Positions 4,273-37,086 of a stretch of 64,000 nucleotides of DNA are shown piece after piece; within the stretch, counting starts at the first letter, position 1; the number at the start of each line of letters is the position of its first letter. Under the pieces are notes generated by a model that worked only from the letters and a program-made list of their open reading frames with translations, did not search any database and was not told the DNA's origin. The position numbers were made by a program, and so were the translations under genes. This stretch comes from an uncultured Actinomycetota bacterium (lineage in GTDB: Bacteria > Actinomycetota > Actinomycetes > JAHEKZ01). Where the stretch lies: contig CAVQYR010000001.1 of the NCBI GenBank assembly GCA_963718235.1, forward strand, positions 1,280,001 through 1,344,000, given 5' to 3'.

Positions 4273-4452
4273 TGCACCTCACCTCGCCCTCGTCGATGCC
4301 TTGCCGATGTCCTGCGGTGACGCTACCGGTCACGGGATCGAGCCGCCGGCATGGTTGCGCGCTCTTCTGCGATGGGCGCTGAGTCTCCCGCGATAGCCTG
4401 CCGGGCAGAGGTCTGCGGTGCCAGGCGGAGGTCCGCGTCAGGGAGGAGTGCC

Positions 4453-5595
4453 ATGAACCGCATCGTGGTCAGGGAGGCTGACGGCTTTCCGCGGGTCAGT
4501 GTCAGTGAGGGCGGACGCGAGGTCGAGCTGCCGGCGCTGTGGCTGCGCCAGTACAGCCCCGAGGCCAGCGAGTGCGACCCGATCACCGGCCAGAGGCTGT
4601 TCGACCCTCACCTGCTGCCGGTCGACCTCCACCTGGTTGCCGTCGAGTCGGAGGGCGACCGCCTCGTCGTCACCTTCAGCGACGGGCACACCTCGACCTT
4701 CGACCAGGCGGAACTTCTCGCCAACGTCGTGCTCTCCGACGGTCTGCCGGCTCCCATTCACTGGCACGCGGACAGCGGCCAGCCTCATGTGCGGTCCTGG
4801 GTCGAGCTTGATGACCCGGCCGCCGAACGGGACGCGCTCGAGGACTTCCTCGCCTACGGCGCGATCGTGTTCGACGGCCTGCCGACGTCCGAGGGCGCCA
4901 TGCTCCATGTGGCTACGCGGTTCGGCTACGTTCGCGAAACCAACTTCGGGCCTGTTTTCGACGTTCGCTCGGTCCCGGACTCGACCGACCTCGCCTACCG
5001 CGCTGTTGCGCTGACTGCCCACACCGACAACCCCTATCGCACGCCCGTTCCCGGGATTCAGCTGTTGCACTGCCTGGTCAACGACACGACGGGCGGTGAG
5101 TCGACTCTCGTTGACGGGCTGGCCGTCGTCGACCAGCTCCAGGCAGATGACCCGGAGGCGGTCGACCTCCTGGCCGCGGTTCCCGTTCGGTTCCACTACC
5201 GCGACGCCGACACCGACATCGTCACGATCCGCCCGGTCGTCGACCGTGACCACTCGGGAACCGTGATCGGCCTCAACTACAGCCCCCGGCTCGACGAGGT
5301 CCCACTCCTTGCTCCTGATGAGACACGGCGGTACCAGTCCGCGCGCCAGCGGCTGGCGCACCTGCTCGCCAGCCCCGAGTTCGAGGTCCGGTTCGCGCTG
5401 GGTGCGGGCCAGCTGATGATGTTCGACAACAACCGCGTGATGCACGGGCGTACCGGATTCGACCCCAGCGAGGGCCTGCGTCACCTGCAGGGCTGCTACA
5501 TCGACCAGGACGGCCCGCGTACCCGCTTCCGGGTGCTCAGTCGACGACTTGCGGCGGCGGGGTCCGCGGCAGAGGAATCCGTGGAGCGTGTGTGA
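4453..5595 (+). CDS. Fe(II)/2OG dioxygenase, gamma-butyrobetaine hydroxylase/TmpA-like (TauD/TfdA)
   Basis: N-terminal WLR..TGQRLF..FSDGH domain; RETNFG, LAY, HTDNPYR (HxD), IQLLHCL, FDNNRVMHGR, RHLQGCYID; ATG at 4453 after GGAGGAG. Confidence 0.9.
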   Translation: MNRIVVREADGFPRVSVSEGGREVELPALWLRQYSPEASECDPITGQRLFDPHLLPVDLHLVAVESEGDRLVVTFSDGHTSTFDQAELLANVVLSDGLPAPIHWHADSGQPHVRSWVELDDPAAERDALEDFLAYGAIVFDGLPTSEGAMLHVATRFGYVRETNFGPVFDVRSVPDSTDLAYRAVALTAHTDNPYRTPVPGIQLLHCLVNDTTGGESTLVDGLAVVDQLQADDPEAVDLLAAVPVRFHYRDADTDIVTIRPVVDRDHSGTVIGLNYSPRLDEVPLLAPDETRRYQSARQRLAHLLASPEFEVRFALGAGQLMMFDNNRVMHGRTGFDPSEGLRHLQGCYIDQDGPRTRFRVLSRRLAAAGSAAEESVERV

Positions 5596-6197
5596 TGACC
5601 ACCACCGACCGTGACCTCGAGCCATCAGGTCCCAGTGTTGCCTTCACCCAGATGAAGGACGGGACGCGCGCTGAGTACCAGTACCTTCGGCGTCTCGAGC
5701 ACGAATACCAGGCTGCGTTGCCCGACCGCGTGATGGCGGCGCTGCGCCGCCTCGACGACGGGCTCGCCGGCTATCAGGTCAGTCGCCTCGAGCACTCGCT
5801 GCAGGCGGCTACGCGCGCGGAGGCTGATGGAGCGGACGTCGAGATGATCGTCGGCGCGCTGGTCCACGACCTCGGCGACGAGCTCGCTCCTGACAACCAC
5901 TCACAGCTGGCGGTGGCGATCGTCCGCCCCTACGTGCGGGCCGAGGTCACCTGGGTGATCGAGATGCACGGCGTCTTCCAGATGGTCTACTACGGCGAGC
6001 ACGTGGGGCTCGACCCGAACGCCCGCGACGCCTATCGCGACCATCAATGGTTCGACAGCTGCGCGACCTTCTGCGAGCGCTGGGACCAGTCGTCCTTCGA
6101 CCCGGACTACCCGACCAAGCCGCTGGAGCACTTCGAGCCGATGCTGCGCGAGGTCTTCGGTCGAACTGCCTTCGACCCCGCCACCGGCTGTCGCTGA
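5592..6197 (+). CDS. HD-domain protein, PhnZ/MIOX-like putative diiron oxygenase
   Basis: EHSLQ..TRA, ALVHDLGD, NH, MHG, WDQ give the H...HD...H...H...D ligand set; GTGA overlap with the dioxygenase stop. Confidence 0.8.
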   Translation: MMTTTDRDLEPSGPSVAFTQMKDGTRAEYQYLRRLEHEYQAALPDRVMAALRRLDDGLAGYQVSRLEHSLQAATRAEADGADVEMIVGALVHDLGDELAPDNHSQLAVAIVRPYVRAEVTWVIEMHGVFQMVYYGEHVGLDPNARDAYRDHQWFDSCATFCERWDQSSFDPDYPTKPLEHFEPMLREVFGRTAFDPATGCR

Positions 6198-6240
6198 CCC
6201 CAGCCGGCCGTCCTGGTTCGGCGGCCGGGCGACCGGCCAG

Positions 6241-8038
6241 TCAGCGCACGGTGACCGACCGGGTCCAGCCCGACCACGAGCCGGCACCAACGCTGTTGAT
6301 GGCACGGATGCGGAACCGGTAGGACGAACCGACCTTGAGGTGGTCGAAGCGCAGCTGACGGACCGTCCCCTTCACGACTCGTTGCTGGCCCCTCGAGGTG
6401 ACGATGCTGTAGCGCAGCACTGGGGCGCCGTTCGGCGGTGCAGCCGTCCAGGTCAGTACGGCTGACTTCCTGGCTGGTTTGGCCGACAGGCGCTGGACCC
6501 GGCCCGGAGCCCCCGCGGGGCGCACGGTGTTGCTCGTGGTGGCCGGTCCGGTGCCCACGTCGTTGGTCGCCGCGACGGTGAAGCGGTAGCGGTGGCCGTT
6601 GCGCAGACCGGTGACGACCGTGCCACGTGCCTTGGCCCCCACGGTCTTGGTCTGCCCGCCCGGCAGCCTGGTCACCACGTAGGAGGTGATGGGTGAGCCG
6701 TTGGGCTTGCCCGCAGTCCAGGTCAGAGTCGCCCGGCCATTGCCCGCCTTGGCGGTGACGACCGACGGCGGTCGTGCGGAGCCTGCGGGCACGACCGCGC
6801 TCGTCGGGCTCGAGGGCGCGCCGGTTCCGGCGTCGCTCTGTGCCACCACCGCGAACGTGTAGGAGCGGCCGTTCGTCAGGCCGTTGACGGTGCAGCTCAA
6901 CGTCGAGGTGGTGCAGGTCCTTGCCCTCGGGAGTCGACGTCGCCACGTACTGCGTGATCGGGTCGCTGCCGGAACTGGTCGGGGCACTCCACTTCACCGT
7001 TGCCGAGGCGTCTCCCGGCACGGCCTAGCGCTTTGCGTGGTGCGCCAGGCGGAGTGGCGGCGATGTTGACGCTGTGCGGTGGCGCTGTCCTTGCTGCCGG
7101 CGTTGTCGGTCACAGTCAGGGTGACCTGGTAGGTGCCGGACGCTGCGTACACATGGGTCGGGCTGGCCGCGGTCGATGTGGCGCCGTCGCCGAACGCCCA
7201 CGCATACGACTCGATCGTGCCGTCGGGATCGCTGGAACCGCTCGAGTCGAAGGAGCACGACTTGTTCACGCAGGAGGACGTGAACGTCGCTGTCGGGGGC
7301 TGGTTGCCAGACGCACCTCGGTCGAGACACGGACGTAGTCGATGTCGCCGGAGAAGTAGTCGCAGGTGATGGTCACCTGGTCGCAGTTGTGCTTGCCGCC
7401 GATGGTGAACGGCTGCTTGTTGTTGATCGGACCTGTCGCGCCGTTCTTGATGGCCACCCGCACACCGTCGACATACTGCTTGACCTGGGTCGCCGTGTGC
7501 ACGCAGGTGACGGTGTGCCACTGCCCGTCGTTCAACGCAGCGGGGGAGCCGGTGCCGACCCGGGTGCCGTCGGCGCCCTTGAAGAGGCACTGGACGTTCC
7601 CTCCGGGACCCTGGACCTTGATCTGGCCGCCCTTGGTCGTGGACTGGCCCTTCTGCATGTAGTTGCCGAAGGGGCGGGTCGTGCGGAACCGGAACTCCAG
7701 GGTGTACGTGGCCGTTGGGGTCAGGGATGTCGAGCCGGATCGTCGTCTGGGACCTGGACGACCCTTGCCTCCTGGACGGGGAGGCAGGCCGGGCACCGCT
7801 CAGCCCAGCTGTAGTACGAGCCGTTGGACGTCAGACCGACCGACGCAGCGTCGGGGCTGATCTGGCCATTGATCCCGTTCCCACTCGAGTCGACCATCAC
7901 CGACGACCCGGCTGACTCGTCGAGCTGCCAGTCGGCGACCACTGCGGTCGCGGCCTGCGCGGGGGCGACCCACGGCGGCGCGGTCAGTCCCACCGCGGCA
8001 AGGGCGAGGACGGTGACCACGATCCCGACACGCTTCAT
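6241..8038 (-). CDS. Secreted LamG/ConA-like + PKD + fibronectin type III protein, broken by at least 4 frame changes (sequencing errors or pseudogene)
   Basis: Signal peptide MKRVGIVV..AQA and WQLDE (7721-8044); LamG LNDGQWHTV..YVDGV..FSGDID (7266-7796); PKD FDSSGSSDPDGTIESYAWAFGDG (6994-7590); FN3 repeats (6107-7021, 6241-6987). Confidence 0.8.
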
Positions 8039-23596: not shown

Positions 23597-23740
23597 GGAG
23601 GTCACCTCTGCTCGACGGGTTGCCGACCCTAGCGACGCCCCTGAGGCTTGTCAGTCGAAGGCCAGAAGTTCACGCCGAAGGACGATCAGACGGCATCCTG
23701 TGACCGGCAGTACGCGCAGCTTGCGGAAGGTGGGGCGAAG

Positions 23741-25288
23741 GTGGATGGCGCAGTGGCGAGCCCGCATCGTCTGGCGACGGCAGCGGGTGAGCAGGTGCTC
23801 GCGGAGGGCGGGTCCGCGGTGGACGCTGCCATCGCGACAGCGGCTGTGCTTGCCGTGGTGGCGCCTCATCAGTGCGGGATCGGTGGTGATGCGGTTGCGC
23901 TGGTTGCCGAGCCCGGTGCGGACATCGCCTGCTACCAGGGGGCCGGTCGGTCGGCGGCTGCGGTCGACGTCGACGCCGTGCGGCAGCTCGGGCACGGCCC
24001 GATGCCGGTGTTCGGTCCACACTCGGTCACTGTTCCCGGGGCGGTCTCCGCGTGGGCCGCGATGCATGCCGACGCGGGCCGGCTGCCCTGGTCCGGGTTG
24101 TTCGACGACGCGACCACGTTGGCCGCGGACGGCTTCGGCGTCGGCCGCGGGCTGAGCGAGGCGATCGCCGACAGCTCGGGCCGGGTCCGTGTGGATCCTG
24201 GCCTGCATGCTCTCCTGACCCTGGACGACAAGCCTCTGACGCTCGGTGACCACCTGCAGCAGCCGGCGCTCGCGCAGACCCTCACCGCACTGGCCTCCGC
24301 CGGACCGGATGCGCTGTACCGGGGGCCGGTCGGAGCGTCACTGGTGGAGCATCTGCGGTCCCTCGGGTCGTCGTTGTCCGTCGAAGACCTCACCGGTCAC
24401 CTGTGCGAGCGCCCCGAACCGATCGAGTCAGCGTGGAGGGGCGCCAGGCTGTGGACTGCTCCACCCCCGTCGCAAGGGGTGGTCCTGTTCCACATCCTCG
24501 CCCTCCTGGACGAACTCGGTGGCTCGAACGACCTGCTCGGGTCAGACGCCGACCTGTTGGCCGGGGTGTTCGCGGCGTCGACCACGTTCCGGGAGGAGCG
24601 GCTGGCCGACCCGCGGGCGTCGCCGGTCGACGTCTCCCACGGGGTGCACCCGGACGACATCGCGAGGACCGCGGGTCAGATCAGGGAGGGGGCACGACCG
24701 GCGGCCGCGCCCTCGCCCTCGCCCCGGCGTCCCGACGGCGACACCGTGGCCGTCGTGGCTGCGGACGCCGAAGGAGGCTTCGTCTCCCTCATCTTCAGCC
24801 TCTTCTACTCGTTCGGTTCAGGGATCTGCGACCCCTCCACCGGAGTGGTCCTGCACAACCGAGGGGCCGGGTTCACCCTGGACGCCGGGTCGCCGAACTG
24901 CCTGGCGCCGAGCCGTCGCCCGGCCCACAGCCTGATGCCGTTGCTGCTGGCCGACGACGAGGGCGTGTTCGCCGCGCACGGCACGATGGGGGGCTACGGC
25001 CAGCCGCAGATCCACGCCCAGCTGCTGCTGCGCCTGGATGCGGGGCAGACGCCCACCGAGGCGGTGACCGCCCCCCGATGGGTGGTCGGGCGCCCAGACG
25101 ACGACGGCGGCCTCCAGATCGAGGTCGAGCGCTCCGCGCCGGGCGTGGTCCAGGACTCACTGGGCAGAGCCGGGCTTCCCGTCCAGCTGCTGGCCGACCT
25201 GGACAGCGAGGTTGGTCACGCCCAGCTGGTGCGTCGCGATGCCTCGGGCGCGCTGCTGGTCGCGACGGACCCACGCGCCGAAGGCTGA
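23741..25288 (+). CDS. Gamma-glutamyltransferase family (Ntn-hydrolase)
   Basis: GGSAVDAAIA, CGIGGD, TVPG, catalytic GDT, LHNRG, RPAHSL, GTMGG.GQPQ, DPRAEG. Confidence 0.9.
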   Translation: MDGAVASPHRLATAAGEQVLAEGGSAVDAAIATAAVLAVVAPHQCGIGGDAVALVAEPGADIACYQGAGRSAAAVDVDAVRQLGHGPMPVFGPHSVTVPGAVSAWAAMHADAGRLPWSGLFDDATTLAADGFGVGRGLSEAIADSSGRVRVDPGLHALLTLDDKPLTLGDHLQQPALAQTLTALASAGPDALYRGPVGASLVEHLRSLGSSLSVEDLTGHLCERPEPIESAWRGARLWTAPPPSQGVVLFHILALLDELGGSNDLLGSDADLLAGVFAASTTFREERLADPRASPVDVSHGVHPDDIARTAGQIREGARPAAAPSPSPRRPDGDTVAVVAADAEGGFVSLIFSLFYSFGSGICDPSTGVVLHNRGAGFTLDAGSPNCLAPSRRPAHSLMPLLLADDEGVFAAHGTMGGYGQPQIHAQLLLRLDAGQTPTEAVTAPRWVVGRPDDDGGLQIEVERSAPGVVQDSLGRAGLPVQLLADLDSEVGHAQLVRRDASGALLVATDPRAEG

Positions 25289-25311: not shown

Positions 25312-26991
25312 ATGAGCGACCCGAGTGCTGCCCGAGACTCCGTCCAGCCGTCCGCCAGTGGCCCTGCCGACCTCGTCATCACCGACGCCGACGTCTACAC
25401 CGTCGACGCGGCCCGCAGCTGGGCCAGGGGACTGGCCGTGCGTGGCGGCCAGATCATCGCTGTCGAGCCCGATCCAACCGACCTCGAGGCGCACATCGGT
25501 CCACGCACCGAGGTGCTGTCCCTGCCCGGGCGGATGGTCGTGCCGGGGTTCCAGGACGCACACATCCACACCCCCTTCGCGGGGCGTAACCGACTGCGCA
25601 TCTTCCTCAACGACCTCGAAGGGCGCCAGGAGTACCTGGAGGTGATCGCCCGTTACGCGGCGGACAACCCGGATGAGCCGTGGATCGTCGGTGGGGGCTG
25701 GGCCATGGAGTACTTCCCCGGGGGGACGCCGACCAAGGACGACCTCGACGCCATCGTTGCCGACCGGCCGGTCTTCTTGTTGAACCGTGACGTCCACGGT
25801 GCCTGGGTCAACTCCAAGGCGCTGGAGATCGCCGGGATCGACAAGGACACCCCGGACCCGGCCGACGGGAGGATCGAGCGTGACCCGGTGACGGGGGAGC
25901 CCTCCGGAACCCTGCACGAGGGGGCGGCCTACTCGTTCAACGACCGGGTCGTTCCGCTGCCGGACCGCGCCGAGTGGGAGGCCGCGATCCTGGAGGGGCA
26001 GCGACACCTGCACTCTCTCGGTATCACCGCTTGGCAGGACGCCTGGGTGACGCCCGGGACCTTGGAGGCGTACCGATCCCTGGCCGACTCCGGCCAGCTT
26101 CAGGCTCGCGTGGTCGGGTCCCTGTGGTGGGACCGCCACCGAGGCCTCGAGCAGATCCCTGAGCTGTTGACCCAGCGGGAGTCCGGCACGGTCGGGTCGT
26201 TCAGTGCGACCACGGTCAAGATCATGACCGACGGTGTGCTGGAGAACTTCACCGGCGCCCTGCTGGAGCCGTACTGCGACGGGTGCGGCGGACACACCGA
26301 CAACCACGGTCTCTCCTACGTCGAGCGGGACCTGCTCGCCGCCGCCGTCACCGAGCTGGACCGGCTTGGCTTCCAGGTGCACATGCACGCGATCGGCGAC
26401 CGTGCGGTTCGTAACGCGTTGGACGCCGTCGCGGCAGCCCGGGCGGCCAACGGCATGAATGACCGGCGCCACCACATCGCCCACGTGCAGATCGTCCAGC
26501 CGGAGGACGTACCCCGGTTCCGCGAGCTCGGCGTCGTGGCCAACTGCCAGCCCTTCTGGGCCCAGATGGAGCCCCAGATGGAGGAGCTGACCCTGCCGTT
26601 CCTGGGCCGGGACCGGGCCGACCTGCAGTACCCCTTCGGTGACCTCCTGCGCTCCGGCGCCGTGCTGGCGGGTGGCAGCGACTGGTCGGTGACCACCGCC
26701 AACCCGCTTGAGGAGATCGAGGTGATGGTCAACCGGGTGGGCACCGAGAACCGCGGAGGAGCCCCCTACCTGCCCGAGCAACGGGTCCCCCTCCCCGCGG
26801 CGTTCGCCGCCTTCACGATGGGCACCGCCTACGTCAACCACGACGACCACGCTTCGGGGTCGGTCGAGGTCGGCAAGCGAGCCGACCTGGCGGTTCTGGA
26901 CCGAAACCTGTTCGCCGCCGGTGCTGGAGCGGTCGCCGAGGCCCACGTCGAGGCCACCTACGTGGGGGGTCGGCAGGTGTTCGGTGAGTGA
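25312..26991 (+). CDS. YtcJ/NfdA-like amidohydrolase (amidohydrolase_3)
   Basis: PGFQDAHIH, HGAWVNSKAL, KIMTDG, HAIGDRA, HIAHVQ, GSDW, GKRADLAVLD. Confidence 0.9.
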   Translation: MSDPSAARDSVQPSASGPADLVITDADVYTVDAARSWARGLAVRGGQIIAVEPDPTDLEAHIGPRTEVLSLPGRMVVPGFQDAHIHTPFAGRNRLRIFLNDLEGRQEYLEVIARYAADNPDEPWIVGGGWAMEYFPGGTPTKDDLDAIVADRPVFLLNRDVHGAWVNSKALEIAGIDKDTPDPADGRIERDPVTGEPSGTLHEGAAYSFNDRVVPLPDRAEWEAAILEGQRHLHSLGITAWQDAWVTPGTLEAYRSLADSGQLQARVVGSLWWDRHRGLEQIPELLTQRESGTVGSFSATTVKIMTDGVLENFTGALLEPYCDGCGGHTDNHGLSYVERDLLAAAVTELDRLGFQVHMHAIGDRAVRNALDAVAAARAANGMNDRRHHIAHVQIVQPEDVPRFRELGVVANCQPFWAQMEPQMEELTLPFLGRDRADLQYPFGDLLRSGAVLAGGSDWSVTTANPLEEIEVMVNRVGTENRGGAPYLPEQRVPLPAAFAAFTMGTAYVNHDDHASGSVEVGKRADLAVLDRNLFAAGAGAVAEAHVEATYVGGRQVFGE

Positions 26992-27136: not shown

Positions 27137-28273
27137 GTGAGTGGCGACAAGGGCTCGGTCGAGCTGGTCAACGTGACGAAGAAGTTCGGCGACTTCACCG
27201 CCGTGGACGCCCTGAACCTCCAGGTCGAGCCGGGCGAGTTCCTCTCGCTGCTGGGGCCGAGTGGCTGCGGCAAGACGACGACGCTGCGCATGCTCGCCGG
27301 CTTCGAGGAGCCGACCGCGGGCGAGATCCTCATCTCGGGCCAGCCGGTCCAGGGTCGCCCCCCCTACAAGCGCGACGTCAACACCGTCTTCCAGGCGTAC
27401 GCCCTGTTCCCGCACATGACCGTCGCGGAGAACGTCGCCTACGGGCTTCGGCAGAAGAAGACGGGCAAGTCCGAGATCAACTCCAAGGTCAGCGAAGCGC
27501 TCGACATGGTGAAGATGCGGGCGATGGCGGGGCGTAAGCCCAACCAGCTTTCCGGCGGTCAGCAGCAGCGGGTAGCCGTGGCCCGGGCGCTGGTCAACCG
27601 GCCGAGCCTGCTGCTGCTCGACGAGCCTCTGGGCGCCCTCGACCGCAAGCTGCGCGAGGAGATGCAGATCGAGCTGAAGCTGTTGCAGAGCCAGCTCGGG
27701 ATCACGTTCATCTTCGTCACCCACGACCAGGAGGAAGCGCTGTCGATGAGTGACCGGATCGCGGTCATGCTCGACGGACACGTCGAACAGCTCGCCGATC
27801 CCTACGCGATCTACGAGCACCCCGCGACCGCTTTCGTGGCCGGCTTCATCGGCCAGCAGAACTTCTTCGAGGGCACGGCGTCCGACGGGGGCAAGACCGT
27901 CACCGGCGACGGCTGGGTCGCGCAGACCGACCGCCCCTCGGAGCCGATCTCCGACGGCGCGGAGGCGCTCGTCGCCGTAAGGCCGGAGACCGTCTCGGTC
28001 GGGGAGGACCGCCCTGACCAGAACACGAACCTCCGCCACGGGACTCTCGCGGGTGTGTCGCACCTCGGCGACGTCATCCAGTTCGTGGTCTCCACCGGCG
28101 AGGGCAAGGAGATCCTCAGCCGGGTGCCGCGCACCAAGGCCCCGAGGCTTCTCCCCGGAGCGTCGGTGTGGTGCTCCTGGGACGCCGAGCACACCTACGT
28201 CTTCGGGTCATCGCAGGCCGACATCGTCCTGGCCGACCCAGCTGAGCTGGTCGAGACCGGCCTCGGTGAGTAA
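27137..28273 (+). CDS. potA: Polyamine-type ABC transporter ATP-binding protein (PotA-like)
   Basis: GPSGCGKTT, RDVNTVFQAYALFPH, LSGGQQQR, LLLDEPLGALD, VTHDQEEAL, C-terminal TOBE-like domain. Confidence 0.9.
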   Translation: MSGDKGSVELVNVTKKFGDFTAVDALNLQVEPGEFLSLLGPSGCGKTTTLRMLAGFEEPTAGEILISGQPVQGRPPYKRDVNTVFQAYALFPHMTVAENVAYGLRQKKTGKSEINSKVSEALDMVKMRAMAGRKPNQLSGGQQQRVAVARALVNRPSLLLLDEPLGALDRKLREEMQIELKLLQSQLGITFIFVTHDQEEALSMSDRIAVMLDGHVEQLADPYAIYEHPATAFVAGFIGQQNFFEGTASDGGKTVTGDGWVAQTDRPSEPISDGAEALVAVRPETVSVGEDRPDQNTNLRHGTLAGVSHLGDVIQFVVSTGEGKEILSRVPRTKAPRLLPGASVWCSWDAEHTYVFGSSQADIVLADPAELVETGLGE

Positions 28274-28324: not shown

Positions 28325-29512
28325 ATGAGTGACGAGCCCACGCTGAAGATTCTTGCCTCGCGTGAAGGAGCTCGGCAGATCTCCCGGCGCGCCTTCATGG
28401 CAGGTGCCAGCGTCACGGCAGTCGGGGGGAGCCTGATCCTCTCGGCCTGTGGCGGCAGCGACGACACCGGCGGGGAGCCGACGCCCAGCGCAGCCCCGTC
28501 GGGAGCCGTCGAGAGCGCGCTCAACATCTACAACTGGGCCGACTACAACGACCCCAAGCTGTACAAGAAGTTCACTGCGGAGACCGGGGCCAAGGTCCAG
28601 GTCGACATCTTCGACTCCAACGAGCAGGCCGTGGCCAAGCTGAACGCCGCGGGCGGCACCAGCGGTTTCGACCTCATGTGTCCCACGGGCACGTTCATCC
28701 CCCTGATGGTTCAGCAGCAGCTGATCCAGCCGCTGGACACCGCGCGCCTGACGAACTTCGGCAACATCGCCCCGGAGTACCTCGACCAGTCGTGGGACCT
28801 GGGGAACAAGTACTCCGTCCCCAAGGACTGGGGTACGACCGGCTTCATGTACGACAAGCGCGCGATCACCCGACCCATGAAGACCTGGCAGGACTTCATG
28901 GACGCCATGCAGAACGAGGCCGCGAACAACACCTCGGTGCTCGCTACGCCGAACAACTTGTGCTCCCTGTTCTTCTGGACCCAGGATCCGGTCCTCGACT
29001 GGACAACCACGGACACCGCTGAGCTGGACGCGTGCGAGACGTACATCCTCGAGGAGGTGGCGCCCTACGTGAAGGCGTACGACTCCTACCCCGGTATCGC
29101 GATCACCCAGGGCAAGTACGTGCTGTCGCAGATCTGGAACGGTGACGCCCGCGCCGGGCTGACGCGTGGCGACAACCCGGAGAACTTCGAATGGGTCTTC
29201 CCAGACGGGACCACCGAGATCTGGATGGACACCTGGACGGTGGTGGCCGGCGCGCCGAACCCCAACGCCGCCTACGCCTGGATCGACTGGATCCTGCAGC
29301 CGGAGATCTCCTACATCGACCTCAAGTACCACGGCTACAACACTGCCATCAAGGGGATCGAGGAGAAGGCGCTGGCCGACGGCATCCCCTACCCGGAGAT
29401 CATCTTCTTCGACGAGGACCAGGTCGCACAGATGGTGGCCGGCGCGGTCAACGAGGGTCTGGACCGGCAGAACGAGATCTACCAGCAGGCCAAGGCCGTC
29501 TCCGCCAGCTGA
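28325..29512 (+). CDS. potD: Polyamine-binding Tat lipoprotein (PotD/PotF-like)
   Basis: Twin-Arg SRRAFM, lipobox LSAC; LNIYNWADY, FDSNE, YSVPKDWGTTG, WNGD, WMD. Confidence 0.88.
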   Translation: MSDEPTLKILASREGARQISRRAFMAGASVTAVGGSLILSACGGSDDTGGEPTPSAAPSGAVESALNIYNWADYNDPKLYKKFTAETGAKVQVDIFDSNEQAVAKLNAAGGTSGFDLMCPTGTFIPLMVQQQLIQPLDTARLTNFGNIAPEYLDQSWDLGNKYSVPKDWGTTGFMYDKRAITRPMKTWQDFMDAMQNEAANNTSVLATPNNLCSLFFWTQDPVLDWTTTDTAELDACETYILEEVAPYVKAYDSYPGIAITQGKYVLSQIWNGDARAGLTRGDNPENFEWVFPDGTTEIWMDTWTVVAGAPNPNAAYAWIDWILQPEISYIDLKYHGYNTAIKGIEEKALADGIPYPEIIFFDEDQVAQMVAGAVNEGLDRQNEIYQQAKAVSAS

Positions 29513-29535: not shown

Positions 29536-30519
29536 ATGAGCACCCAGGCTCCGGAGCGGCCGCCAGCCGCTGCGCCTCCGCCGGTCGCGCCCGCGCCCAG
29601 GGCGCGTCGGCGGGCGCCGAAGTTCACCATGGCGATCCCCGCGTGGGCGTGGCTGCTGGTCTTCTTCCTGATCCCGGTCGGCTTCATCCTCGTCTACAGC
29701 TTCGGGCGCAAGCCCGGGCTGCTGGAGCTGAAGCCCGGCCAGATCAACACGATCGCCCTCGACCAGTGGCCGACCTTCGAGCGCTACCAGGAGGTGCTGG
29801 ACGGCCCGATCCTGTCGACCTTCCAGAACACCCTGCAGATCGCCATCATCGGCACCCTGGCCTGCCTGCTGATCGGCTTCCCGTTCGCCTACTGGCTGGC
29901 GGTCAAGGTGCCGGAGAGGTACCGGGCGATCCTGCTCGGACTCATCCTGGTGCCGTTCTGGACCAACTTCTTGATCCGAACGATCGCCTGGCAGATCCTG
30001 CTGTTCCCCGAGGGCTGGTTCTCCGGACTGCTCCAGGACATCGGGTTGCTGGGCGGTCCACTCGCGGTGCTCGACACCAGAGCGGCAGTCCAGATCGGGG
30101 TCGTCTACAACTACCTGGTCCTGATGATCCTGCCCTTGTTCGTGGCGCTGGACCGGATCGACCCGGCCCTGCGCGACGGCAGCAAGGACCTGGGTGCCAA
30201 CCGGATCAAGACGTTCATGCAGGTGACCTTGCCCCTGGCGATGCCTGGGGTCGTCTCGGGGCTGCTGCTCGTGTTCATCCCGTTGATGGGCGACTACATC
30301 ACCGCCTCGATCCTCGGTGGCGCCAAGGGCACCATGGCTGGACAGCTGGTCTACGACCAGTTCCTGGTGGCGCAGAACTGGGCACTGGGGTCGGCGATGG
30401 CCATGTTCTTGATCATGACGATCCTGGTCACGGTTCTCGTCTTTGCGGCGGTGTTCCTACTCGTTGCCTGGGTCCTGAGACGTCGCCGCCGGGTCACCTT
30501 GACGGAGGTGACCGCATGA
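29536..30519 (+). CDS. potB: Polyamine ABC permease (PotB-like)
   Basis: PFWTNFLIRTIAW, YNYLVLMILPLF, DLGA...VTLPL.MPG, GDYIT..ILGG. Confidence 0.88.
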   Translation: MSTQAPERPPAAAPPPVAPAPRARRRAPKFTMAIPAWAWLLVFFLIPVGFILVYSFGRKPGLLELKPGQINTIALDQWPTFERYQEVLDGPILSTFQNTLQIAIIGTLACLLIGFPFAYWLAVKVPERYRAILLGLILVPFWTNFLIRTIAWQILLFPEGWFSGLLQDIGLLGGPLAVLDTRAAVQIGVVYNYLVLMILPLFVALDRIDPALRDGSKDLGANRIKTFMQVTLPLAMPGVVSGLLLVFIPLMGDYITASILGGAKGTMAGQLVYDQFLVAQNWALGSAMAMFLIMTILVTVLVFAAVFLLVAWVLRRRRRVTLTEVTA

Positions 30520-31400
30520 CCGCAGTCGCTGCTGCTCCCGCGCCGGCCCCGGTGGTCAAGCGGAAGATCGACTGGGTCACGGTAGGGCTCTACGTGTGGG
30601 GCATCGCGACCCTGATCTTCCTGTTCCTGCCGGTCATCCTGGTCACCGTCTACTCGTTCAACTCCGGTCCGGCGCTGCTCGTCTGGCGTGGGTTCAGCAC
30701 CGAGCCCTTCGGTACCGCACTTGCCGACTCCCAGCTCACCGGACCCATGATCACCTCGGTGAAGGTGGCGCTGGGCGCTGCCGTCATTGCGACCATCCTG
30801 GGGACCTTCGCCGGCATGGCACTGGGCCGGCGTCCGGGCAAGTGGACGGTCCTCTTCATCGGTCTGATCGCTCTGGTGCTGGTCACGCCTGAGATCGTCG
30901 ACGGCATCTCCATGTTGCTGTGGTTCGTCCAGCTCGGTGACATCCCGGGCCTGGCGTTCTTCGACAACGGGCTCATCCGACTGTTCATCGGCACCTCGTT
31001 GTTCGCAGTGGCCGTCGTCACGCTGATCGTGCGCGCGCGCGTGGCTGGGCTCTCGGAGTCACTCGAGGAGGCCGCCGCCGACCTCTATGCCGCACCGTGG
31101 AACCGGTTCCGCCAGGTCACGTTCCCGTTGTTGGCTCCGGCGATCATCTCCGGCGGCTTGCTGGCGTTCTCCCTGAGCCTGGACAACACGATCATCGCCC
31201 AGTTCGTCAGCGTCGGTGGAACTGCGACCTGGCCGGTCTACGTGTGGGGGTCGGTCCGGCAGGGGCTCAAGCCGGAGGTCGCGGCGATGTCCACCCTGCT
31301 GCTGATCCTGACCCTGACCTCGCTCATCCTGGTGGCTCTGGTGCTCCGCCGCTCCGGGGCGTCGTCCAAGGAGATCGCCACGACCATGGCCGGCCAGTAG
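30516..31400 (+). CDS. potC: Polyamine ABC permease (PotC-like)
   Basis: YSFN, TPEIV, LEEAAADL, FSLSLDN; ATGA overlap with potB. Confidence 0.88.
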   Translation: MTAVAAAPAPAPVVKRKIDWVTVGLYVWGIATLIFLFLPVILVTVYSFNSGPALLVWRGFSTEPFGTALADSQLTGPMITSVKVALGAAVIATILGTFAGMALGRRPGKWTVLFIGLIALVLVTPEIVDGISMLLWFVQLGDIPGLAFFDNGLIRLFIGTSLFAVAVVTLIVRARVAGLSESLEEAAADLYAAPWNRFRQVTFPLLAPAIISGGLLAFSLSLDNTIIAQFVSVGGTATWPVYVWGSVRQGLKPEVAAMSTLLLILTLTSLILVALVLRRSGASSKEIATTMAGQ

Positions 31401-31410
31401 ACCCACGCGA

Positions 31411-33084
31411 CTACAGGAAGTACAACCGGTTCAGGCTCACCGACTGCGCGGGCTCTGCGGTCAGCAGCTCGCCGTCGAACCGCACGGTTGCCTGTCTCGG
31501 GTCGACCTGGGTACGGCCGATCGTGTCGTTGCGCACCATGTCAGCCAGGCCGATCCCGCGGCAGTGGCGCACCGCGACCCGCTTCCGGTGGGTCTTCATC
31601 CGGTCGGCGTCGTTCTGCAGGGCCGCCTCACTGACGAAGGCCACGGCCAGGTCCGGGGCAGCCAGGCCGTGGGCGCCGAACTGGGGGCCGAGGACCAACG
31701 GCTCGGCCCGGTCGACGCTGGCGTTGGGGTCACCGGTGACGCCCCAGGCGGGGAAGCCGGCCTTCAGGACAAGGTGCGGCTTGGCGCCGAAGAAGACGGG
31801 CTCCCACAGCACGATGTCAGCGAGCTTGCCCGGCTCGACTGAGCCGATCTCGTGCGACAACCCGTGAGCGATGGCCGGGTTGATCGTGAGCTTGGCCAGG
31901 TACCGCAGCACCCGGTGGTTGTCATGGCGGTCGTCGTCGGGTCCGCGGTCGAGCCGGTTCTTGCCGGCGAGGGCGAAGGTGCGTCGGACGGTCTCCCCGG
32001 CCCGTCCCATGCCCTGCGCGTCGGATGACGTGATCGGAATCACGCCGAGGTCGTGCAGGACGTCCTCGGCCGCCATCGTGGTGCCGCGGATGCGGTCCTG
32101 CGCCAGCTTGAGGTCGGTCGGCAGGTCACGCTTGAGACCGTGGCTGGCGACGATCATGTCGAGGTGCTCGGCGACGGCGTCACGTCCGTAGGGCAGCGTC
32201 GGGTTGGTCGACGAGCCGATCACGTTGCTGACCCCGGCGAGGGTCAAGACATCGGGTACGTGTCCTCCGCCGCAGCCCTCAACGTGGAACGCGTGGATCG
32301 TGCGGCCGTCGATCGCCGCCAGCGTGTCGGCCACCGAGAGGCTCTCGTTCAGCCCGTCGGTGTGCAACGCCACCTGTACGTCGAAGTCCTCGGCGACCCG
32401 AAGTGCGGTGTCCAGGGCACGCAGGTGGGCACCCGTGTCCTCGTGCACCTTGAACCCACAGGCCCCTCCTTCGACCAGTGCCTCCACCAGTGGCGCCTGA
32501 GTGGACGACGACCCACGGCCGAGGAAGCCGATGTTGACCGGCCAGGCGTCGAAGGCGTCGAAGGCGGTGGCGATCCCCCAGGGGGAGTTCACGCCCACGC
32601 CCCACACCGGTCCGAACTCCTGCCCCAGGATGGTGGTCACTCCTGAGGAAAGGGCGGCCTCCATGATCCGCGGTGACATCAGGTGCACGTGGGTGTCGAT
32701 CGCACCGGCCGTGGCGATCAGCCCCTCGCCGCTCACGACGGCCGTTCCGGTACCGACCACGACGTCGACGTCGTCCAAGGTGTCGGGGTTGCCGGCCCGA
32801 CCGATCGACACGATCCGGCCCTCGCGGATGCCGATCGACACCTTGCCGATCCCGATCACGGCGTCGATCAGGACGACGTTGCTGATGACGAGGTCACAGG
32901 TATCACGCACAGTTGCGGCCTTGAGGTGCATGCCGTCGCGTGCGGTCTTCCCGAAGCCCATCAAGAACTCGTCACCGGGCCGCTGTGAGTCATGCTCCAA
33001 CTCGATGACCAGCCCTGTGTCGGCGAGGTGCACGCGGTCACCCACGGTGGGTCCGTGCACGCCAGCCAGCTCCGCGCGGCTCAT
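31411..33084 (-). CDS. ureC: Urease alpha-subunit homolog with remodelled substrate pocket
   Basis: GPTVGD, DTHVH, FKVHED, LHTD.LNE, HAFHVEG.GGGH, SSTNPT, SSDAQGMGR, TINPA; flap reads MIVASHGL rather than MLMVCHHL. Confidence 0.88.
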   Translation of the reverse strand: MSRAELAGVHGPTVGDRVHLADTGLVIELEHDSQRPGDEFLMGFGKTARDGMHLKAATVRDTCDLVISNVVLIDAVIGIGKVSIGIREGRIVSIGRAGNPDTLDDVDVVVGTGTAVVSGEGLIATAGAIDTHVHLMSPRIMEAALSSGVTTILGQEFGPVWGVGVNSPWGIATAFDAFDAWPVNIGFLGRGSSSTQAPLVEALVEGGACGFKVHEDTGAHLRALDTALRVAEDFDVQVALHTDGLNESLSVADTLAAIDGRTIHAFHVEGCGGGHVPDVLTLAGVSNVIGSSTNPTLPYGRDAVAEHLDMIVASHGLKRDLPTDLKLAQDRIRGTTMAAEDVLHDLGVIPITSSDAQGMGRAGETVRRTFALAGKNRLDRGPDDDRHDNHRVLRYLAKLTINPAIAHGLSHEIGSVEPGKLADIVLWEPVFFGAKPHLVLKAGFPAWGVTGDPNASVDRAEPLVLGPQFGAHGLAAPDLAVAFVSEAALQNDADRMKTHRKRVAVRHCRGIGLADMVRNDTIGRTQVDPRQATVRFDGELLTAEPAQSVSLNRLYFL

Positions 33085-33776
33085 GAGGTGGCCTCCGCCC
33101 CGAGGTAACCACAGGCCCGGGCCTTCTCCAGGGCGCGCTCCTGCGCGCCTGGGGCGTCGAGGGGACCGTCGACCAGGCCCGCGAAGCCGACGATGACGCG
33201 GGCGCCGCCGACTGGGGTGAGCTCGACCCGCGACGTGGACCCCGGCTCGAAGTGCAGGGCCGCCCCGGCGGCGATGGCCAGTCTCTTGCCGTAGGCGGCC
33301 GCACGGTCGAAATGGAGCCGGGGGTTGACCTCGAAGAAGTGGAAGTGGGAGGTGACGCTGATCGGCACCTCTGCGGTGTTCGTGACGACCACGGCGGTGA
33401 GTGGTCCGAACTCCGGCAGGACCGGCCAGTCGTCGTGAACCATGGCCCCTGGCGCGACCTCCCCCAGTGACTCACCTCCGATCGGGTCGGGGACGACGAC
33501 GAGTCGGGAGCCGTCGTCGAACACGGCTTCGACCCAGACCTCGGTGACGATGTCGCTGACACCGGGAAGGACGTCGCCAGGTCCGAGCACCGCGCGCCCC
33601 GCCTGCAGTGCGTCGGCCAGCCTCCGCCCGTCGCGTGCTGCCTCGCACACGGTGTCGGCGACGAGTGCTGTCGCTTCGGGCACGTTGAGCCGCAAGCCGC
33701 GGGCACGGCGTCGTCGGGCCAGCTCGGCAGCGGTGAAGATCAGCAAGCGATCGCGTTCGGAAGGGGTGAGCCGCAT
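33081..33776 (-). CDS. ureAB: Fused urease gamma/beta subunit homolog
   Basis: MRLTPSE..LL...RGLRLNVPEA (gamma); SHFHFFEVNP..FDR..AYG.RL..FEPG (beta); ATGA overlap with alpha. Confidence 0.9.
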   Translation of the reverse strand: MRLTPSERDRLLIFTAAELARRRRARGLRLNVPEATALVADTVCEAARDGRRLADALQAGRAVLGPGDVLPGVSDIVTEVWVEAVFDDGSRLVVVPDPIGGESLGEVAPGAMVHDDWPVLPEFGPLTAVVVTNTAEVPISVTSHFHFFEVNPRLHFDRAAAYGKRLAIAAGAALHFEPGSTSRVELTPVGGARVIVGFAGLVDGPLDAPGAQERALEKARACGYLGAEATS

Positions 33777-33811
33777 GCCCCCGATCATGCCGTGCCAGGG
33801 GGTGAGGGACC

Positions 33812-33817
33812 TAGGCT
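33812..33817 (+). promoter_or_regulatory. Putative -10 box of the tRNA promoter
   Basis: TAGGCT 10 nt upstream of the tRNA 5' end; matches actinobacterial TANNNT. Confidence 0.45.
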
Positions 33818-33827
33818 AAGGCGCACC

Positions 33828-33901
33828 GGGGCGGTAGCTCAGTTGGTCAGAGCAGCGGACTCATAATCCGTCAGGCGTGGGTTCAAGTCCCACCCGCCCC
33901 A
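33828..33901 (+). tRNA. tRNA with CAT anticodon (probably tRNA-Ile2; elongator Met not excluded)
   Basis: Acceptor GGGGCGG/CCGCCCC + A discriminator; D arm GCTC-AGTTGGTCA-GAGC; anticodon arm GCGGA-CTCATAA-TCCGT; T arm GTGGG-TTCAAGT-CCCAC; CCA not encoded; paired 1:72, so not initiator. Confidence 0.95.
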
Positions 33902-34033
33902 CCCTTCATGGCCTGTGACCGCATGCACCAACACGACGATCGAGGCCGTCTCTTGCCAACTAGACTGATCCGACTGGCCGGCACCAGCGCCAGTGGGGTC
34001 GCTCACCGATGTCCAGGCTGACAAGGACGCGCA

Positions 34034-35686
34034 ATGGACGAAGCCGACGATCTGCCCCAGGCTGTGACCGTTGACGTTGCAGTGGTGGGAGCTGGCTTCT
34101 CCGGCCTGTACCTGCTCCACCGGCTGCGTCAGTCGGGCCTTTCCGTACGGGTCTTCGAGAAGGGCGACAGTGTTGGCGGTACATGGCACTGGAACCGCTA
34201 TCCCGGGGCCCGGTGCGACATCGAGAGCTTCGACTACTGCTTCTCGTTCTCCTCAGAGCTGCTGACTGACTGGCGGTGGAGCGAGCGCTACGCCGCCCAA
34301 CCGGAGATTCTCCAGTACCTCAACCATGTAGCCGACCGGTTCGACCTGCGCCGCGACATAGCGTTGGAGACGAACGTCGTCTCCGCGCACTTCGACGAAG
34401 GCCGGGCCTCGTGGACTCTCGAGACCAGCGGTGGCGGCCTGGTGCAAGCGCGATACTGCATCCTCGCGGCCGGCAATCTCTCGGCTGTCCAGCCACCCAA
34501 CTTCCCGGGGCTCGACACGTTCGCGGGGGACTGGTATCACACCGGCCAGTGGCCGCCCGAACCCGTCGAACTCGCCGACAAGCGAGTGGCTGTGATCGGA
34601 ACGGGATCGTCGGGAATCCAGACGATCACCGCAATCGCCCCAGTGGTCGCCCGCCTGTACGTCCTTCAACGCACGCCGAACTACAGCATGCCTGCGCACA
34701 ACCGCGCCATCGGCGAGGCGGAACGGGCAGCCGTGCTGGCTGACTGGGAACGACGACGACGGATCTGCGAGGAGTCGGACGCCGGCACGCCCCTGCCCGC
34801 GCCAACACGCAGGGCGGTCGACGTCAGCGCCGCCGAACGCGAGGCCGCCTACGAGGAGGGTTGGCGGCGTGGTGGCATCAGTGCCCTGTCAGGGGCGTTC
34901 ACCGACATGTTCACCAGCGAAGAGTCCAACTTCTTCGCTCAGGAGTTCGCTCGCCGCAAGATCCGCGAGACCGTGCATGACCACGACACCGCTGAGGTGC
35001 TGAGTCCTCGGCACCATATTGGTACCAAACGAACCTGCGTCGACACCGGCTACTTCGAGACGTTCAACCGTGACAACGTCGAGCTCGTCGACGTGAGGCA
35101 GTCACCCATCCAGGGGATCAACCGCGACGGGATTCAGACAGCCGACGCGCAAATCGACGTCGACGCCATCATCTTCGCGATCGGCTTCGACGCGATCACC
35201 GGCGCCGTCGATCAGATCGAGGTGAGGGGGAGACGGGGACAGCTCCTGAAGGATCACTGGGCGCGGGGGCCACGCACCCTCCTGGGGTTGCAGACCGCAG
35301 GCTTCCCGAACCTCTTCTTCGTCACCGGGCCGGGGAGCCCCTCCGTGCTCAGCAACATGGTCGTCTCCATCGAGCAGCACGTTGGCTGGATCGCCGAGTG
35401 CCTCGAGCGCATGCAGGAGTCCGGACACGACACCATCGAGTGCACGGCGGAGGCCGAGGACGACTGGATGAACCGGGTCGACGACCTGGCGAGTGCCACG
35501 CTCTACCCAGAGGCCGACTCCTGGTACCTGGGAGCGAATACTCCGGGAAAGCCCCGGGCGTTCACCGTGTACGTCGCCGGGTGCGGCCCCTACCGGAGAG
35601 AGTGCGACCAGGTCGTCGCAGCCGGATACCGTGGCTTCGCGATGACCAGATCGACCGAGGCGTCAGGAACGGAGAGCACGGTATGA
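34034..35686 (+). CDS. Type I Baeyer-Villiger monooxygenase (CHMO/PAMO family)
   Basis: GAGFSG, GGTWHWNRYPGARCD, fingerprint FAGDWYHTGQWP, GTGSSG, QRTP, TKR, SWYLGANTPGKPR. Confidence 0.95.
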   Translation: MDEADDLPQAVTVDVAVVGAGFSGLYLLHRLRQSGLSVRVFEKGDSVGGTWHWNRYPGARCDIESFDYCFSFSSELLTDWRWSERYAAQPEILQYLNHVADRFDLRRDIALETNVVSAHFDEGRASWTLETSGGGLVQARYCILAAGNLSAVQPPNFPGLDTFAGDWYHTGQWPPEPVELADKRVAVIGTGSSGIQTITAIAPVVARLYVLQRTPNYSMPAHNRAIGEAERAAVLADWERRRRICEESDAGTPLPAPTRRAVDVSAAEREAAYEEGWRRGGISALSGAFTDMFTSEESNFFAQEFARRKIRETVHDHDTAEVLSPRHHIGTKRTCVDTGYFETFNRDNVELVDVRQSPIQGINRDGIQTADAQIDVDAIIFAIGFDAITGAVDQIEVRGRRGQLLKDHWARGPRTLLGLQTAGFPNLFFVTGPGSPSVLSNMVVSIEQHVGWIAECLERMQESGHDTIECTAEAEDDWMNRVDDLASATLYPEADSWYLGANTPGKPRAFTVYVAGCGPYRRECDQVVAAGYRGFAMTRSTEASGTESTV

Positions 35687-37086
35687 GCAACACCGGGAAT
35701 CGCGCCCCCGCCGCCACCGATGTGCTGCGGCAACTGCAGGATGCGGGCGTTCGGACGGTGGTGGTAGGGGGTAGCGACACTCATGGCGTGATGCGTGGCA
35801 AGCGCGTGCCGATCGGGCAGCTGCCTCACCTCCTCGAGCACGGAATGGCGCTGTGCGACGTCTTCTGGGTGCTGCACATCGATGACTCAGATCGAGTCCT
35901 GCGTCCGGCGGACCACCGCGGCTACTTCCCCAACGAGGCACAGGGCTACCCGGACATCGTTGCAGCGGCAGACCTGGCGACTGCCCGGGTGGTGCCCTGG
36001 CACCCCGACACTGGGCTGCTGATCTGCGACTGGCTCCTGCCGCACGACGGCGGTCCGGTGCCGATCGCACCGCGATCGATCCTGCGCCACGTCGTCGAGC
36101 AGGCCTCCGACATGGGATATGCCGCCCTGAGTGCCCTGGAGCTCGAGTTCTACATCCTCGACGAGCCAACCGGCACTGAGCACCGCAAGCGTGCTGCCGA
36201 GCTGGTCCCCCTGCAGGAGCGGCCAAGCACGTATGGGGTGGTTTCCGGATCGAACCAGGAGCACATCGGTTCCGTGATCCGTGACCACATGATGGACTTC
36301 GGGCTTCCGATCGAAGCCTGCAACGCGGAGACCGGGCCAGGCCAGTTCGAGATCAACCTCCGCTACGGGCCGGCCGTGTCGGCTGCCGATGATGCCTTCT
36401 TGTTCAAGTCAGGCGTCAAGGAGGTGGCTGCGCAGAGCAACTGGCTGGCGACCTTCATGGCCAAGCCCCACTCCGACTGGGCTGGCAACAGCTGTCACAT
36501 CCACATGAGCCTGCGCGACCAGGAAGACCATGGAGTCCTCTTCGATGCCGATGCTCACCTCGGCGTCTCAAGAGTGATGCGCCACTTCATCGGCGGGGTC
36601 CTGAGCACGATGCGGGAGTTCACCGCGATCATGGCTCCGACCCCCAACTCCTACCGCCGCTACTCCCCGCACTCGTGGGCCGGGTCCACGGCAACCTGGG
36701 GCATCGACAACCGCAGCGCGGGCCTGCGCGCGATCATCGAGGGCGCAGAGGGCACGCGTCTCGAGCACCGTCAGGCAGGCGGCGACGTGAACCCCTACCT
36801 CGCTACGGCGGCCATGCTGGCTGGCGGCCTGCACGGGATCGAGAACGGCATCGAGCCACCTGAGCCGGCCGCTTTCGACGTGTACGTGCAGTCGGCAGAA
36901 GGGGCGCCAGCACTTCCGCGCTCGCTTCCGGAGGCGCTCGATGCGCTGGGAGGTAGTGGAGTAGCCCGTCAGTGGTTCGGGGACGACTTCGTGGATCACT
37001 TCGTCGTGATGAAACAGGCCGAGATCGACGCACAAGCCTGGTTCGTCACCGACTGGGAAGTGGCCCGCTACCTCGAGGCTCTCTGA
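35683..37086 (+). CDS. Glutamine synthetase-like gamma-glutamyl-amine ligase
   Basis: MRGKR, ELEF, ETGPGQFEINL, TFMAKP, GNSCHIHMSL, NSYRR, DNR, RLEHR..G.DVNPYL; flap HSWAG has Trp in place of the GS Glu327; ATGA overlap with BVMO. Confidence 0.9.
   Translation: MSNTGNRAPAATDVLRQLQDAGVRTVVVGGSDTHGVMRGKRVPIGQLPHLLEHGMALCDVFWVLHIDDSDRVLRPADHRGYFPNEAQGYPDIVAAADLATARVVPWHPDTGLLICDWLLPHDGGPVPIAPRSILRHVVEQASDMGYAALSALELEFYILDEPTGTEHRKRAAELVPLQERPSTYGVVSGSNQEHIGSVIRDHMMDFGLPIEACNAETGPGQFEINLRYGPAVSAADDAFLFKSGVKEVAAQSNWLATFMAKPHSDWAGNSCHIHMSLRDQEDHGVLFDADAHLGVSRVMRHFIGGVLSTMREFTAIMAPTPNSYRRYSPHSWAGSTATWGIDNRSAGLRAIIEGAEGTRLEHRQAGGDVNPYLATAAMLAGGLHGIENGIEPPEPAAFDVYVQSAEGAPALPRSLPEALDALGGSGVARQWFGDDFVDHFVVMKQAEIDAQAWFVTDWEVARYLEAL

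Follow-up and report, generated by a model that had tools for sequence, protein, structure and literature searches.

The window analysed here is a stretch of 64,000 nucleotides from the genome of an uncultured actinomycete (assembly GCA_963718235.1, contig CAVQYR010000001.1, positions 1,280,001 to 1,344,000), and the subject of this work is a pair of urease-like genes on its minus strand, ureAB2 and ureC2. The ureC2 gene (31411..33084) codes for a urease-family alpha subunit of 557 residues with the Pfam domains Urease_alpha (PF00449) and Amidohydro_1 (PF01979), of the clade-2 'ure(AB)C-only' type. The ureAB2 gene (33081..33776) encodes a fused gamma/beta subunit with Urease_gamma (PF00547) and Urease_beta (PF00699). 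A longer open reading frame of 235 residues, from an upstream ATG, spans 33081-33788, but family models align only from its residue 5; the start is therefore probably the ATG at 33776, as a first-pass annotation of the sequence had it, and the protein then begins with MRLTP. The open reading frame coordinates place the ureAB2 stop and the ureC2 start in a 4-nucleotide overlap (33081..33084, minus strand), which suggests translational coupling. ureC2 exceeds the cut-off of the NCBIfam subfamily model NF009686 (751 bits against 354), and ureAB2 that of the bifunctional gamma/beta model NF009671 (309.7 bits against 243). With 655.7 bits, ureC2 stays under the cut-off of 680 for the urease-alpha equivalog TIGR01792, and its scores are far under the cut-offs of the remaining urease-alpha equivalog models. 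The protein is about 50% identical to solved ureases.

The bounds given earlier for the gene pair, potC on one side and a tRNA on the other, hold. The stop of a PotC-like gene (31400) lies 10 nucleotides from that of ureC2 in convergent orientation, and a tRNA-Met (CAT) gene at 33828..33903 on the plus strand (ARAGORN; Rfam RF00005, 76.3 bits) stands about 50 nucleotides upstream of ureAB2, bounding its promoter region. This tRNA is the sole match of an Rfam scan of the window, which revealed no riboswitch or further RNA upstream of the pair, and consensus scans of 31000-34200 found no promoter-like or terminator-like site.

Active site and substrate pocket

Residues were numbered by alignment to the chains of Klebsiella aerogenes urease. 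The pair has the same fold and domain order as the canonical Ni-ureases of K. aerogenes, Yersinia enterocolitica and Sporosarcina pasteurii. The metal ligands are intact, namely H132 and H134 (H134 and H136 in K. aerogenes), K212 (K217), H241 (H246), H267 (H272) and D355 (D360), as are the catalytic residues H214 (H219), D216 (D221), H315 (H320) and R331 (R336). The HxH motif, carbamylation Lys, two further His and Asp ligand that had been read from the sequence at first are thus all confirmed, and by alignment the window protein holds the complete set by which a urease is recognised: six metal ligands, the carbamylated Lys among them, plus H219, D221, H320 and R336.

Unlike the canonical UreABC enzymes served by UreDEFG, the pair has fused subunits, no accessory genes and a remodelled pocket. 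The pocket loop reads GQEFGPVWGVGVN----SPW, four residues having been deleted with respect to K. aerogenes and Gly-Gly replaced by Gln-Glu. In the flap, C319 is replaced by S314 and H321 by G316, and other motifs carry the changes A363 to G358, S361 to A356 and G47 to F44. The differences noted by the first-pass annotation in the loop, the flap, SDSQAMGR and GGGKVIRDG are accordingly all real, but one point needs correcting: the flap has lost H321, a His without catalytic role, and keeps the catalytic H320. Beyond these, the alignment brought out A276 to C271, T273 to V268 and F332 to L327. We take A167, A363, C319, H321 and F332 to line the urea pocket, and we regard the A167 loop, A363, the C319 flap and the GGGTGP motif as the canonical urea-pocket residues, a combination that the window protein does not possess. 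K. aerogenes C319 variants stay active.

Maturation genes

The genome of origin (3.17 Mb in 2 contigs) holds a single ureC, and profile searches across the whole of it (95.3% complete) found no UreD, UreF or UreE_C. UreG was likewise not found in the whole genome, the sole UreG-like match (33 bits against a cut-off of 204) being HypB. The absence of ureD/E/F/G, first noticed within the window, thus extends to the genome, and a search for ureDFG, whose presence elsewhere would have spoken for a canonical urease, detected none. The first-pass annotation saw no Ni transporter in the window either, and no search aimed at one was made. HypB sits in a hypA-hypB-[NiFe] hydrogenase cluster about 16 kb past the window end (hypA, hypB and the [NiFe]-hydrogenase small subunit at G000:C1:1359671-1361709, L116 1671-3709), which indicates that the organism handles nickel despite having no ureDEFG.

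The same question was put to 301 genomes of the class, UreG being recognised by TIGR00101 at E <= 1e-30; this sample overlaps with the 80 named loci described below, as both were drawn from one collection of species genomes. Within the sample, identity to the window protein follows a bimodal distribution, with values of at least 56% or at most 54%, and the clade to which the protein belongs is present in 46 of the 301 genomes, 12 of which also carry a canonical copy. In the clade versus UreG survey (INDEPENDENCE FROM UreG), UreG occurs in none of the 34 clade-only genomes, one of which (G177) has a broken canonical copy, but in all 12 genomes with both urease types and in 54 of the 59 canonical-only genomes. 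The five canonical-only exceptions are G282 (69% complete), G014 (75% complete, unpublished), G099, G164 and G143. The clade-only state without UreG is seen in 13 families, and no accessory gene is linked to the clade pair in any of 81 loci surveyed. Active urease can be made without accessory genes, as in Bacillus subtilis. Among named genomes, 4 of the 14 with the clade lack UreG, and a literature search, with most subscription journals outside its coverage, found no urease test for these four strains. Urease has been reported in 2 of 9 Kineococcus strains (PMC7601052).

The ure(AB)C-only clade

Close relatives of the window protein are numerous (73-97% identical) and bear the public label 'urease subunit alpha'. 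The 80 named loci fetched come from Streptomyces, Kitasatospora, Nonomuraea, Sphaerimonospora, Kineosporia, Kineococcus and uncultured actinomycetes. In a tree of 44 UreC sequences obtained by a quick IQ-TREE search, a branch with an SH-aLRT support of 100 separates the 33 clade members from the remaining sequences, which are seven canonical three-subunit ureases, two fused-AB ureases with accessory genes and two representatives of another orphan type. The pair falls within a monophyletic group of actinomycete sequences, the 'ure(AB)C-only' type represented by SCO5525/SCO5526 of Streptomyces coelicolor, which is distinct from canonical urease. The UreC phylogeny proposed as a check in the first-pass annotation thus places the protein outside the canonical ureases; the protein also fails TIGR01792.

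The clade is marked by the motifs GF[GA]K, QE[FIV]GP.WGVGV, EGCGGGH and SSDA[QL]GMGR, all carried by the window protein. All 86 of the 86 clade sequences have the same metal ligands and catalytic residues, and all have F44, Q155, E156, W161, C271, I311 and G358, which differ from all seven canonical actinomycete ureases compared. The C319 flap position is variable among the 86 sequences (V in 57, S in 14, A in 8 and C in 7). Across many families, 172 of 557 positions are invariant and identity within the clade ranges from 59 to 98%; the retention of the catalytic set in every sequence at such distances argues for a working enzyme under selection.

SCO5525/SCO5526 and their S. avermitilis counterpart resemble the pair in consisting of a fused gamma/beta gene and an alpha gene with no accessory genes adjacent, and the Streptomyces members share 73-77% identity with the window protein and group within its clade. 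Unlike the genome studied here, Streptomyces also has a canonical ureABCFGD set, so that accessory dependence cannot be judged there. The next gene in Streptomyces codes for an AguA-like deiminase and is followed by a TetR gene, whereas here a Pot-type importer and a YtcJ-like amidohydrolase are the neighbours. The 'ure(AB)C-only' cluster type is listed as urease in PMC2492869, PMC3293853 and PMC5489568, and SCO5527 as the homologue of an arginine-decarboxylase-pathway gene (PMC3293853). No functional study of this cluster type was found by the literature search described above.

Several sequences near the clade may be mentioned separately. In the fused-AB ureases L104 (G167:C3) and L106 (G145:C1), which have accessory genes including UreG, the loop is four residues shorter and A363 is replaced by Gly, as in the orphan clade, but GGG and the CHH flap are retained; their pocket looks like an intermediate form. 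The further orphan type, found at L102 (G099, 4237-7704) and L103 (G164, 4226-7704), has an alpha subunit 47% identical to the window protein, a loop shortened even more (ITAGFE--EPPMA), intact ligands and a long tree branch. UreG was not found in these two genomes, and directly upstream lie a TetR gene and a divergent AguA-like gene. Finally, L022, on a 10.9-kb contig from a record labelled as a Bifidobacterium breve metagenome-assembled genome, is a clade member with 73% identity and with neither deiminase nor Amidohydro_3 neighbour; its label may reflect a binning error.

Genomic context

Neighbouring genes were surveyed in 81 loci, with genes called by codon-usage score and clustered by BLASTP. 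ureAB lies directly upstream of ureC in 75 of them. A cluster identified from its representative as PAD_porph, the agmatine-deiminase family, is present in 58 loci and is an immediate neighbour in 54, so that the link to agmatine deiminase in Streptomyces, which the first-pass annotation had mentioned, is real. The deiminase lies downstream of the pair in Streptomyces but upstream of it in Kitasatospora, and Kineosporia and Kineococcus carry it on the opposite strand. A cluster of YtcJ-like Amidohydro_3 proteins, arranged in at least three ways, occurs in 19 of the 81 loci. At least one of these two families is found in 76 loci; of the remaining five, four lie on contigs with 1-4 genes. Genome-wide, PAD_porph is encoded in 41 of 46 clade genomes versus 21 of 255 others, and three of those 21 are genomes with the further orphan urease type, where the deiminase is again adjacent. 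In three of the five clade genomes without PAD_porph (G274, G168 and G222), an Amidohydro_3 gene adjoins the pair.

The Streptomyces-type linked deiminase scores 309 bits, under the AguA equivalog cut-off of 381.8. In four genomes (G238, G209, G241 and G122), the linked gene passes this cut-off with 505-545 bits, and in G209 and G241 ureAB, ureC and aguA are co-directional on one strand. The presence of an AguA equivalog beside the pair makes N-carbamoylputrescine a concrete candidate substrate. No putrescine-carbamoyltransferase-like gene was found in these four genomes (best scores of 217-269 bits versus 453 in the genome studied here), and the AguB cut-off is reached by none of the 301 genomes, which would leave the ure pair as the candidate for the second step of the route.

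In the window, a polyamine-type importer array faces the pair from the plus strand. It is headed by a gamma-glutamyltransferase-family gene (23648..25288; Pfam G_glu_transpept, 362 bits; TIGR00066, 259 bits, under its cut-off of 357.85), followed by a YtcJ-like Amidohydro_3 metal hydrolase (25312..26991; PF07969, 304 bits), the nearest solved chains of which, 3icj and 3igh, are described as 'uncharacterized metal-dependent hydrolase'. Next come a PotA-like ABC ATPase (27137..28273), with 382 bits against the cut-off of 355.6 for the polyamine subfamily model TIGR01187, and a PotD/PotF-like solute-binding protein (28325..29512; Pfam SBP_bac_8), which stays under the PotD cut-off (122 bits versus 582) and has polyamine-binding proteins as its best solved matches. 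A PotB-like permease (29629..30519; NF007044, 208 bits) and a PotC/PotI-like permease (30552..31400; NF007889, 161 bits, and NF007047, 158 bits) complete the array, all three permease scores being under the cut-offs. The order Amidohydro_3-PotA-PotD-PotB-PotC, convergent with the pair, is conserved in 13 of 13 loci of family f1. Importer, Amidohydro_3 and ure(AB)C are also linked, co-directionally this time, in a distant low-GC genome (G222).

The G222 locus (L149, 391-19622) deserves a description of its own. This genome of 1.7 Mb with a GC content of 0.48 carries a single co-directional array comprising, in this order, genes for a formamidase-like protein, an HbpS-like protein, B12 diol-dehydratase subunits with their reactivase, Amidohydro_3, ureAB and a ureC with the clade signature, then an Ntn-hydrolase-like gene, a FAD oxidase (amine-oxidase-like) and PotA, B, C, D and D. 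In two members of the window's family, G217 (L141) and G233 (L142), frameshifts or a stop interrupt ureC, and neighbouring genes of the importer and the amidohydrolase are broken up as well. A joint decay of importer and ure genes was considered as evidence and rejected, since these few-contig assemblies may carry frameshift errors.

With regard to the deiminases of the genome studied here, one member of each of the linked subfamilies, at least three in number, is encoded elsewhere than in the window, along with a fourth paralogue. The AguA equivalog of this genome (557 bits), of the kind that adjoins the pair in G238, G209, G241 and G122, lies outside the window, where it forms a complete operon for the agmatine deiminase route with a putrescine-carbamoyltransferase-like gene (453 bits, cut-off 500) and an amino-acid permease gene (G000:C1:284746-288545, L113 4746-8545). 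Two AguA-like paralogues (243 and 305 bits, under the cut-off) flank a BetI-type TetR gene at G000:C1:395057-397813 (L114 6057-8813). This deiminase-TetR cluster mirrors the module beside ure(AB)C in Streptomyces, and a second YtcJ-like Amidohydro_3 gene lies 3.3 kb from it.

Proposed function and alternative readings

Having established the anatomy of the pair, its place in a clade, the absence of accessory genes and the linkage to neighbouring genes, we infer activity, self-maturation, metal and substrate. That the enzyme is active and matures without UreDEFG is very likely in view of the conserved residues and the gene content. ureAB2-ureC2 would form an active binuclear-metal hydrolase of the urease family, the carbamylated-lysine metal centre of which would be built without UreD/E/F/G, by analogy with enzymes of the amidohydrolase superfamily. 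The Gln-Glu-Phe...Trp loop, four residues shorter, together with Ala363 to Gly, Ala276 to Cys and the variable flap Cys, may create space for a substituent at one of the two nitrogens of urea. A compound R-NH-CO-NH2 would in that case be split into NH3 and a carbamate, which would decay to R-NH2 and CO2. The likeliest substrates would be N-carbamoyl-amines formed by agmatine-deiminase-family enzymes, four of which are encoded in the genome, with N-carbamoylputrescine foremost; imported substrates, supplied through the polyamine-type importer and the YtcJ-like amidohydrolase, could also be used. Such an enzyme may help the cell to recover nitrogen from guanidino and polyamine compounds.

A pocket that was remodelled and then stayed fixed, together with the lasting linkage to producers of N-carbamoyl-amines, leads us to favour a substituted-urea hydrolase, and we give nearly an even chance to a self-maturing hydrolase of N-carbamoyl-amines such as N-carbamoylputrescine. 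The first-pass annotation had already suggested a non-urea amidohydrolase acting on a substituted urea; the distinct clade, the lack of ureDEFG and the deiminase linkage lend support to this view, while the substrate and metal that it named are still conjectural. A role as N-carbamoylputrescine amidohydrolase (EC 3.5.1.53) could only be that of a nonhomologous analogue, since the reaction proposed is that of AguB (CN-hydrolase fold) and AguY (amidase-signature fold), and the pair has no homology to either. The line of inference is also shared, since it was a position next to aguA that led to AguY, likewise in Actinomycetota (PMC12283126, 2025); urease is mentioned nowhere in that paper.

Several observations weigh against this reading. 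The linked deiminases belong to at least three subfamilies, which does not imply a single substrate, and the bona fide AguA of this genome already has partners in an operon of its own, namely a putrescine-carbamoyltransferase-like gene and a permease gene. G209 and G241 carry 2-3 further amidase-signature paralogues, one of them about 14 kb from the locus, so that the argument from a missing enzyme is not closed in these genomes, where an AguY-type enzyme is possible. The 4-residue deletion and A363G are common to the fused-AB urease type with UreG and hence are alone no mark of a new substrate; what is specific to the clade is Gly-Gly to Gln-Glu, the Phe, the Trp, A276C and G47F, together with a flap that has lost the CHH motif. 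The adjacent Pot transporter, which the first-pass annotation had counted in favour of a carbamoyl-amine substrate, is of polyamine type and retained in 13 of 13 family loci, but it converges on the pair in the window and is therefore not on the same transcript. Lastly, the genome counts include close kin, as 15 of the 46 clade genomes are from the same family as the window and a single genus accounts for 13.

That the pair is a genuine urease (EC 3.5.1.5), maturing without UreDEFG and recycling agmatinase urea, is somewhat unlikely in our estimation, though the genome offers a plausible role for such an enzyme. Two agmatinase equivalogs, which produce urea, are present, and neither urea carboxylase nor UrtA nor any other urea-degrading enzyme was found in this genome, so that plain urease activity would be of use to this organism. 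No residue of the urease catalytic set is missing, and these proteins are publicly annotated as 'urease subunit alpha'. Such an enzyme might obtain nickel by another route, HypA and HypB being encoded in the genome, or might use another metal, like Helicobacter mustelae UreA2B2, which we take to be a two-subunit urease with a canonical pocket, without dedicated accessory genes and without nickel. The solved chain 3qga_C of UreA2B2 gives a 526-bit match; this enzyme (3qga/3qgk) is a true urease of the Helicobacter urease lineage and not a member of the clade. It contains iron and is made under nickel scarcity, according to PMC3919588. A change of metal or of maturation would not obviously require a pocket that is remodelled and then frozen in 86 of 86 sequences, and the score under the urease-alpha equivalog cut-off also speaks against plain urease activity. 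It is deiminases and amidohydrolases that recur next to the pair, and not urea transporters, and 12 of the 13 clade-bearing Streptomyces genomes (g33) keep a canonical urease with UreG, the thirteenth being G177 with its broken canonical copy.

The diversity of the linked deiminases can also be read as pointing to another small C-N substrate, with N-carbamoylputrescine at most one of several. Candidates would be the product of the YtcJ-like amidohydrolase, alkylureas, hydroxyurea, and biuret-like or guanidine-derived compounds. The replacement of PAD_porph by an Amidohydro_3 neighbour in G274, G168 and G222 agrees with this, as do the formamidase-like, Ntn-hydrolase-like, amine-oxidase-like and B12-dehydratase genes in the low-GC array. 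We nevertheless consider it improbable, since no specific compound follows from the data and the adjacency of bona fide AguA in four genomes points to N-carbamoylputrescine. The pair might also be a decaying or non-catalytic relic of a urease operon after the loss of accessory genes, as broken copies are present in 2 of the 15 genomes of the window's family (G217 and G233). These copies lie in assemblies of 3 and 5 contigs with neighbouring genes also split, where an assembly error is possible; moreover, the frames are otherwise intact, gene order is conserved, 172 of 557 positions are invariant and the catalytic residues are kept in all 86 sequences across many families, which makes a relic very improbable.

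Under the preferred reading, the N-carbamoyl-amine hydrolase, we can tentatively propose, with more doubt than for the reading itself, that the clade represents the first substrate switch in the urease family, namely a self-assembling, metal-dependent and possibly nickel-free enzyme that would complete the agmatine-deiminase route. If so, the urease scaffold would be shown to work without the UreDEFG maturation system, and bacterial agmatine/polyamine metabolism would gain a new enzyme, in a step for which a nonhomologous enzyme was reported in 2025 (PMC12283126). Next to AguB, AguY and putrescine carbamoyltransferase, the clade enzyme would add another nonhomologous N-carbamoylputrescine amidohydrolase, one that would be widespread among actinomycetes of soil and freshwater and is now annotated everywhere as 'urease'. 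Surveys count every UreC match as urea degradation, and the clade, found in 46 of 301 actinomycete genomes, is the only 'urease' in 34; such counts would be wrong for soil and freshwater actinomycetes if the clade is inactive on urea.

Other features of the window

Matches to public sequencing runs were of limited extent. Two metatranscriptome runs of one study cover parts of the pair, each with one short contig, X11 at 32018-32248 and X20 at 33224-33431, with two differences each at a depth of 2-3, and DNA carry-over is possible. The shares covered by sequencing runs are at most 0.41; X1, with pieces showing 0-1 differences, may be the source sample.

Beyond the tRNA on the plus strand, a glutamine-synthetase-like gene of the gamma-glutamyl-polyamine synthetase type (35788..37086; Pfam Gln-synt_C) matches the GS III, GlnA and gamma-glutamylputrescine synthetase models, all under their cut-offs, and a nitrilase-like gene is also nearby. 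Between the tRNA and the glutamine-synthetase-like gene lies a gene for a flavin monooxygenase of the Baeyer-Villiger type (34034-35686, plus strand), whose top-scoring model is pentalenolactone D synthase with 281 bits, far under the cut-off of 1100.

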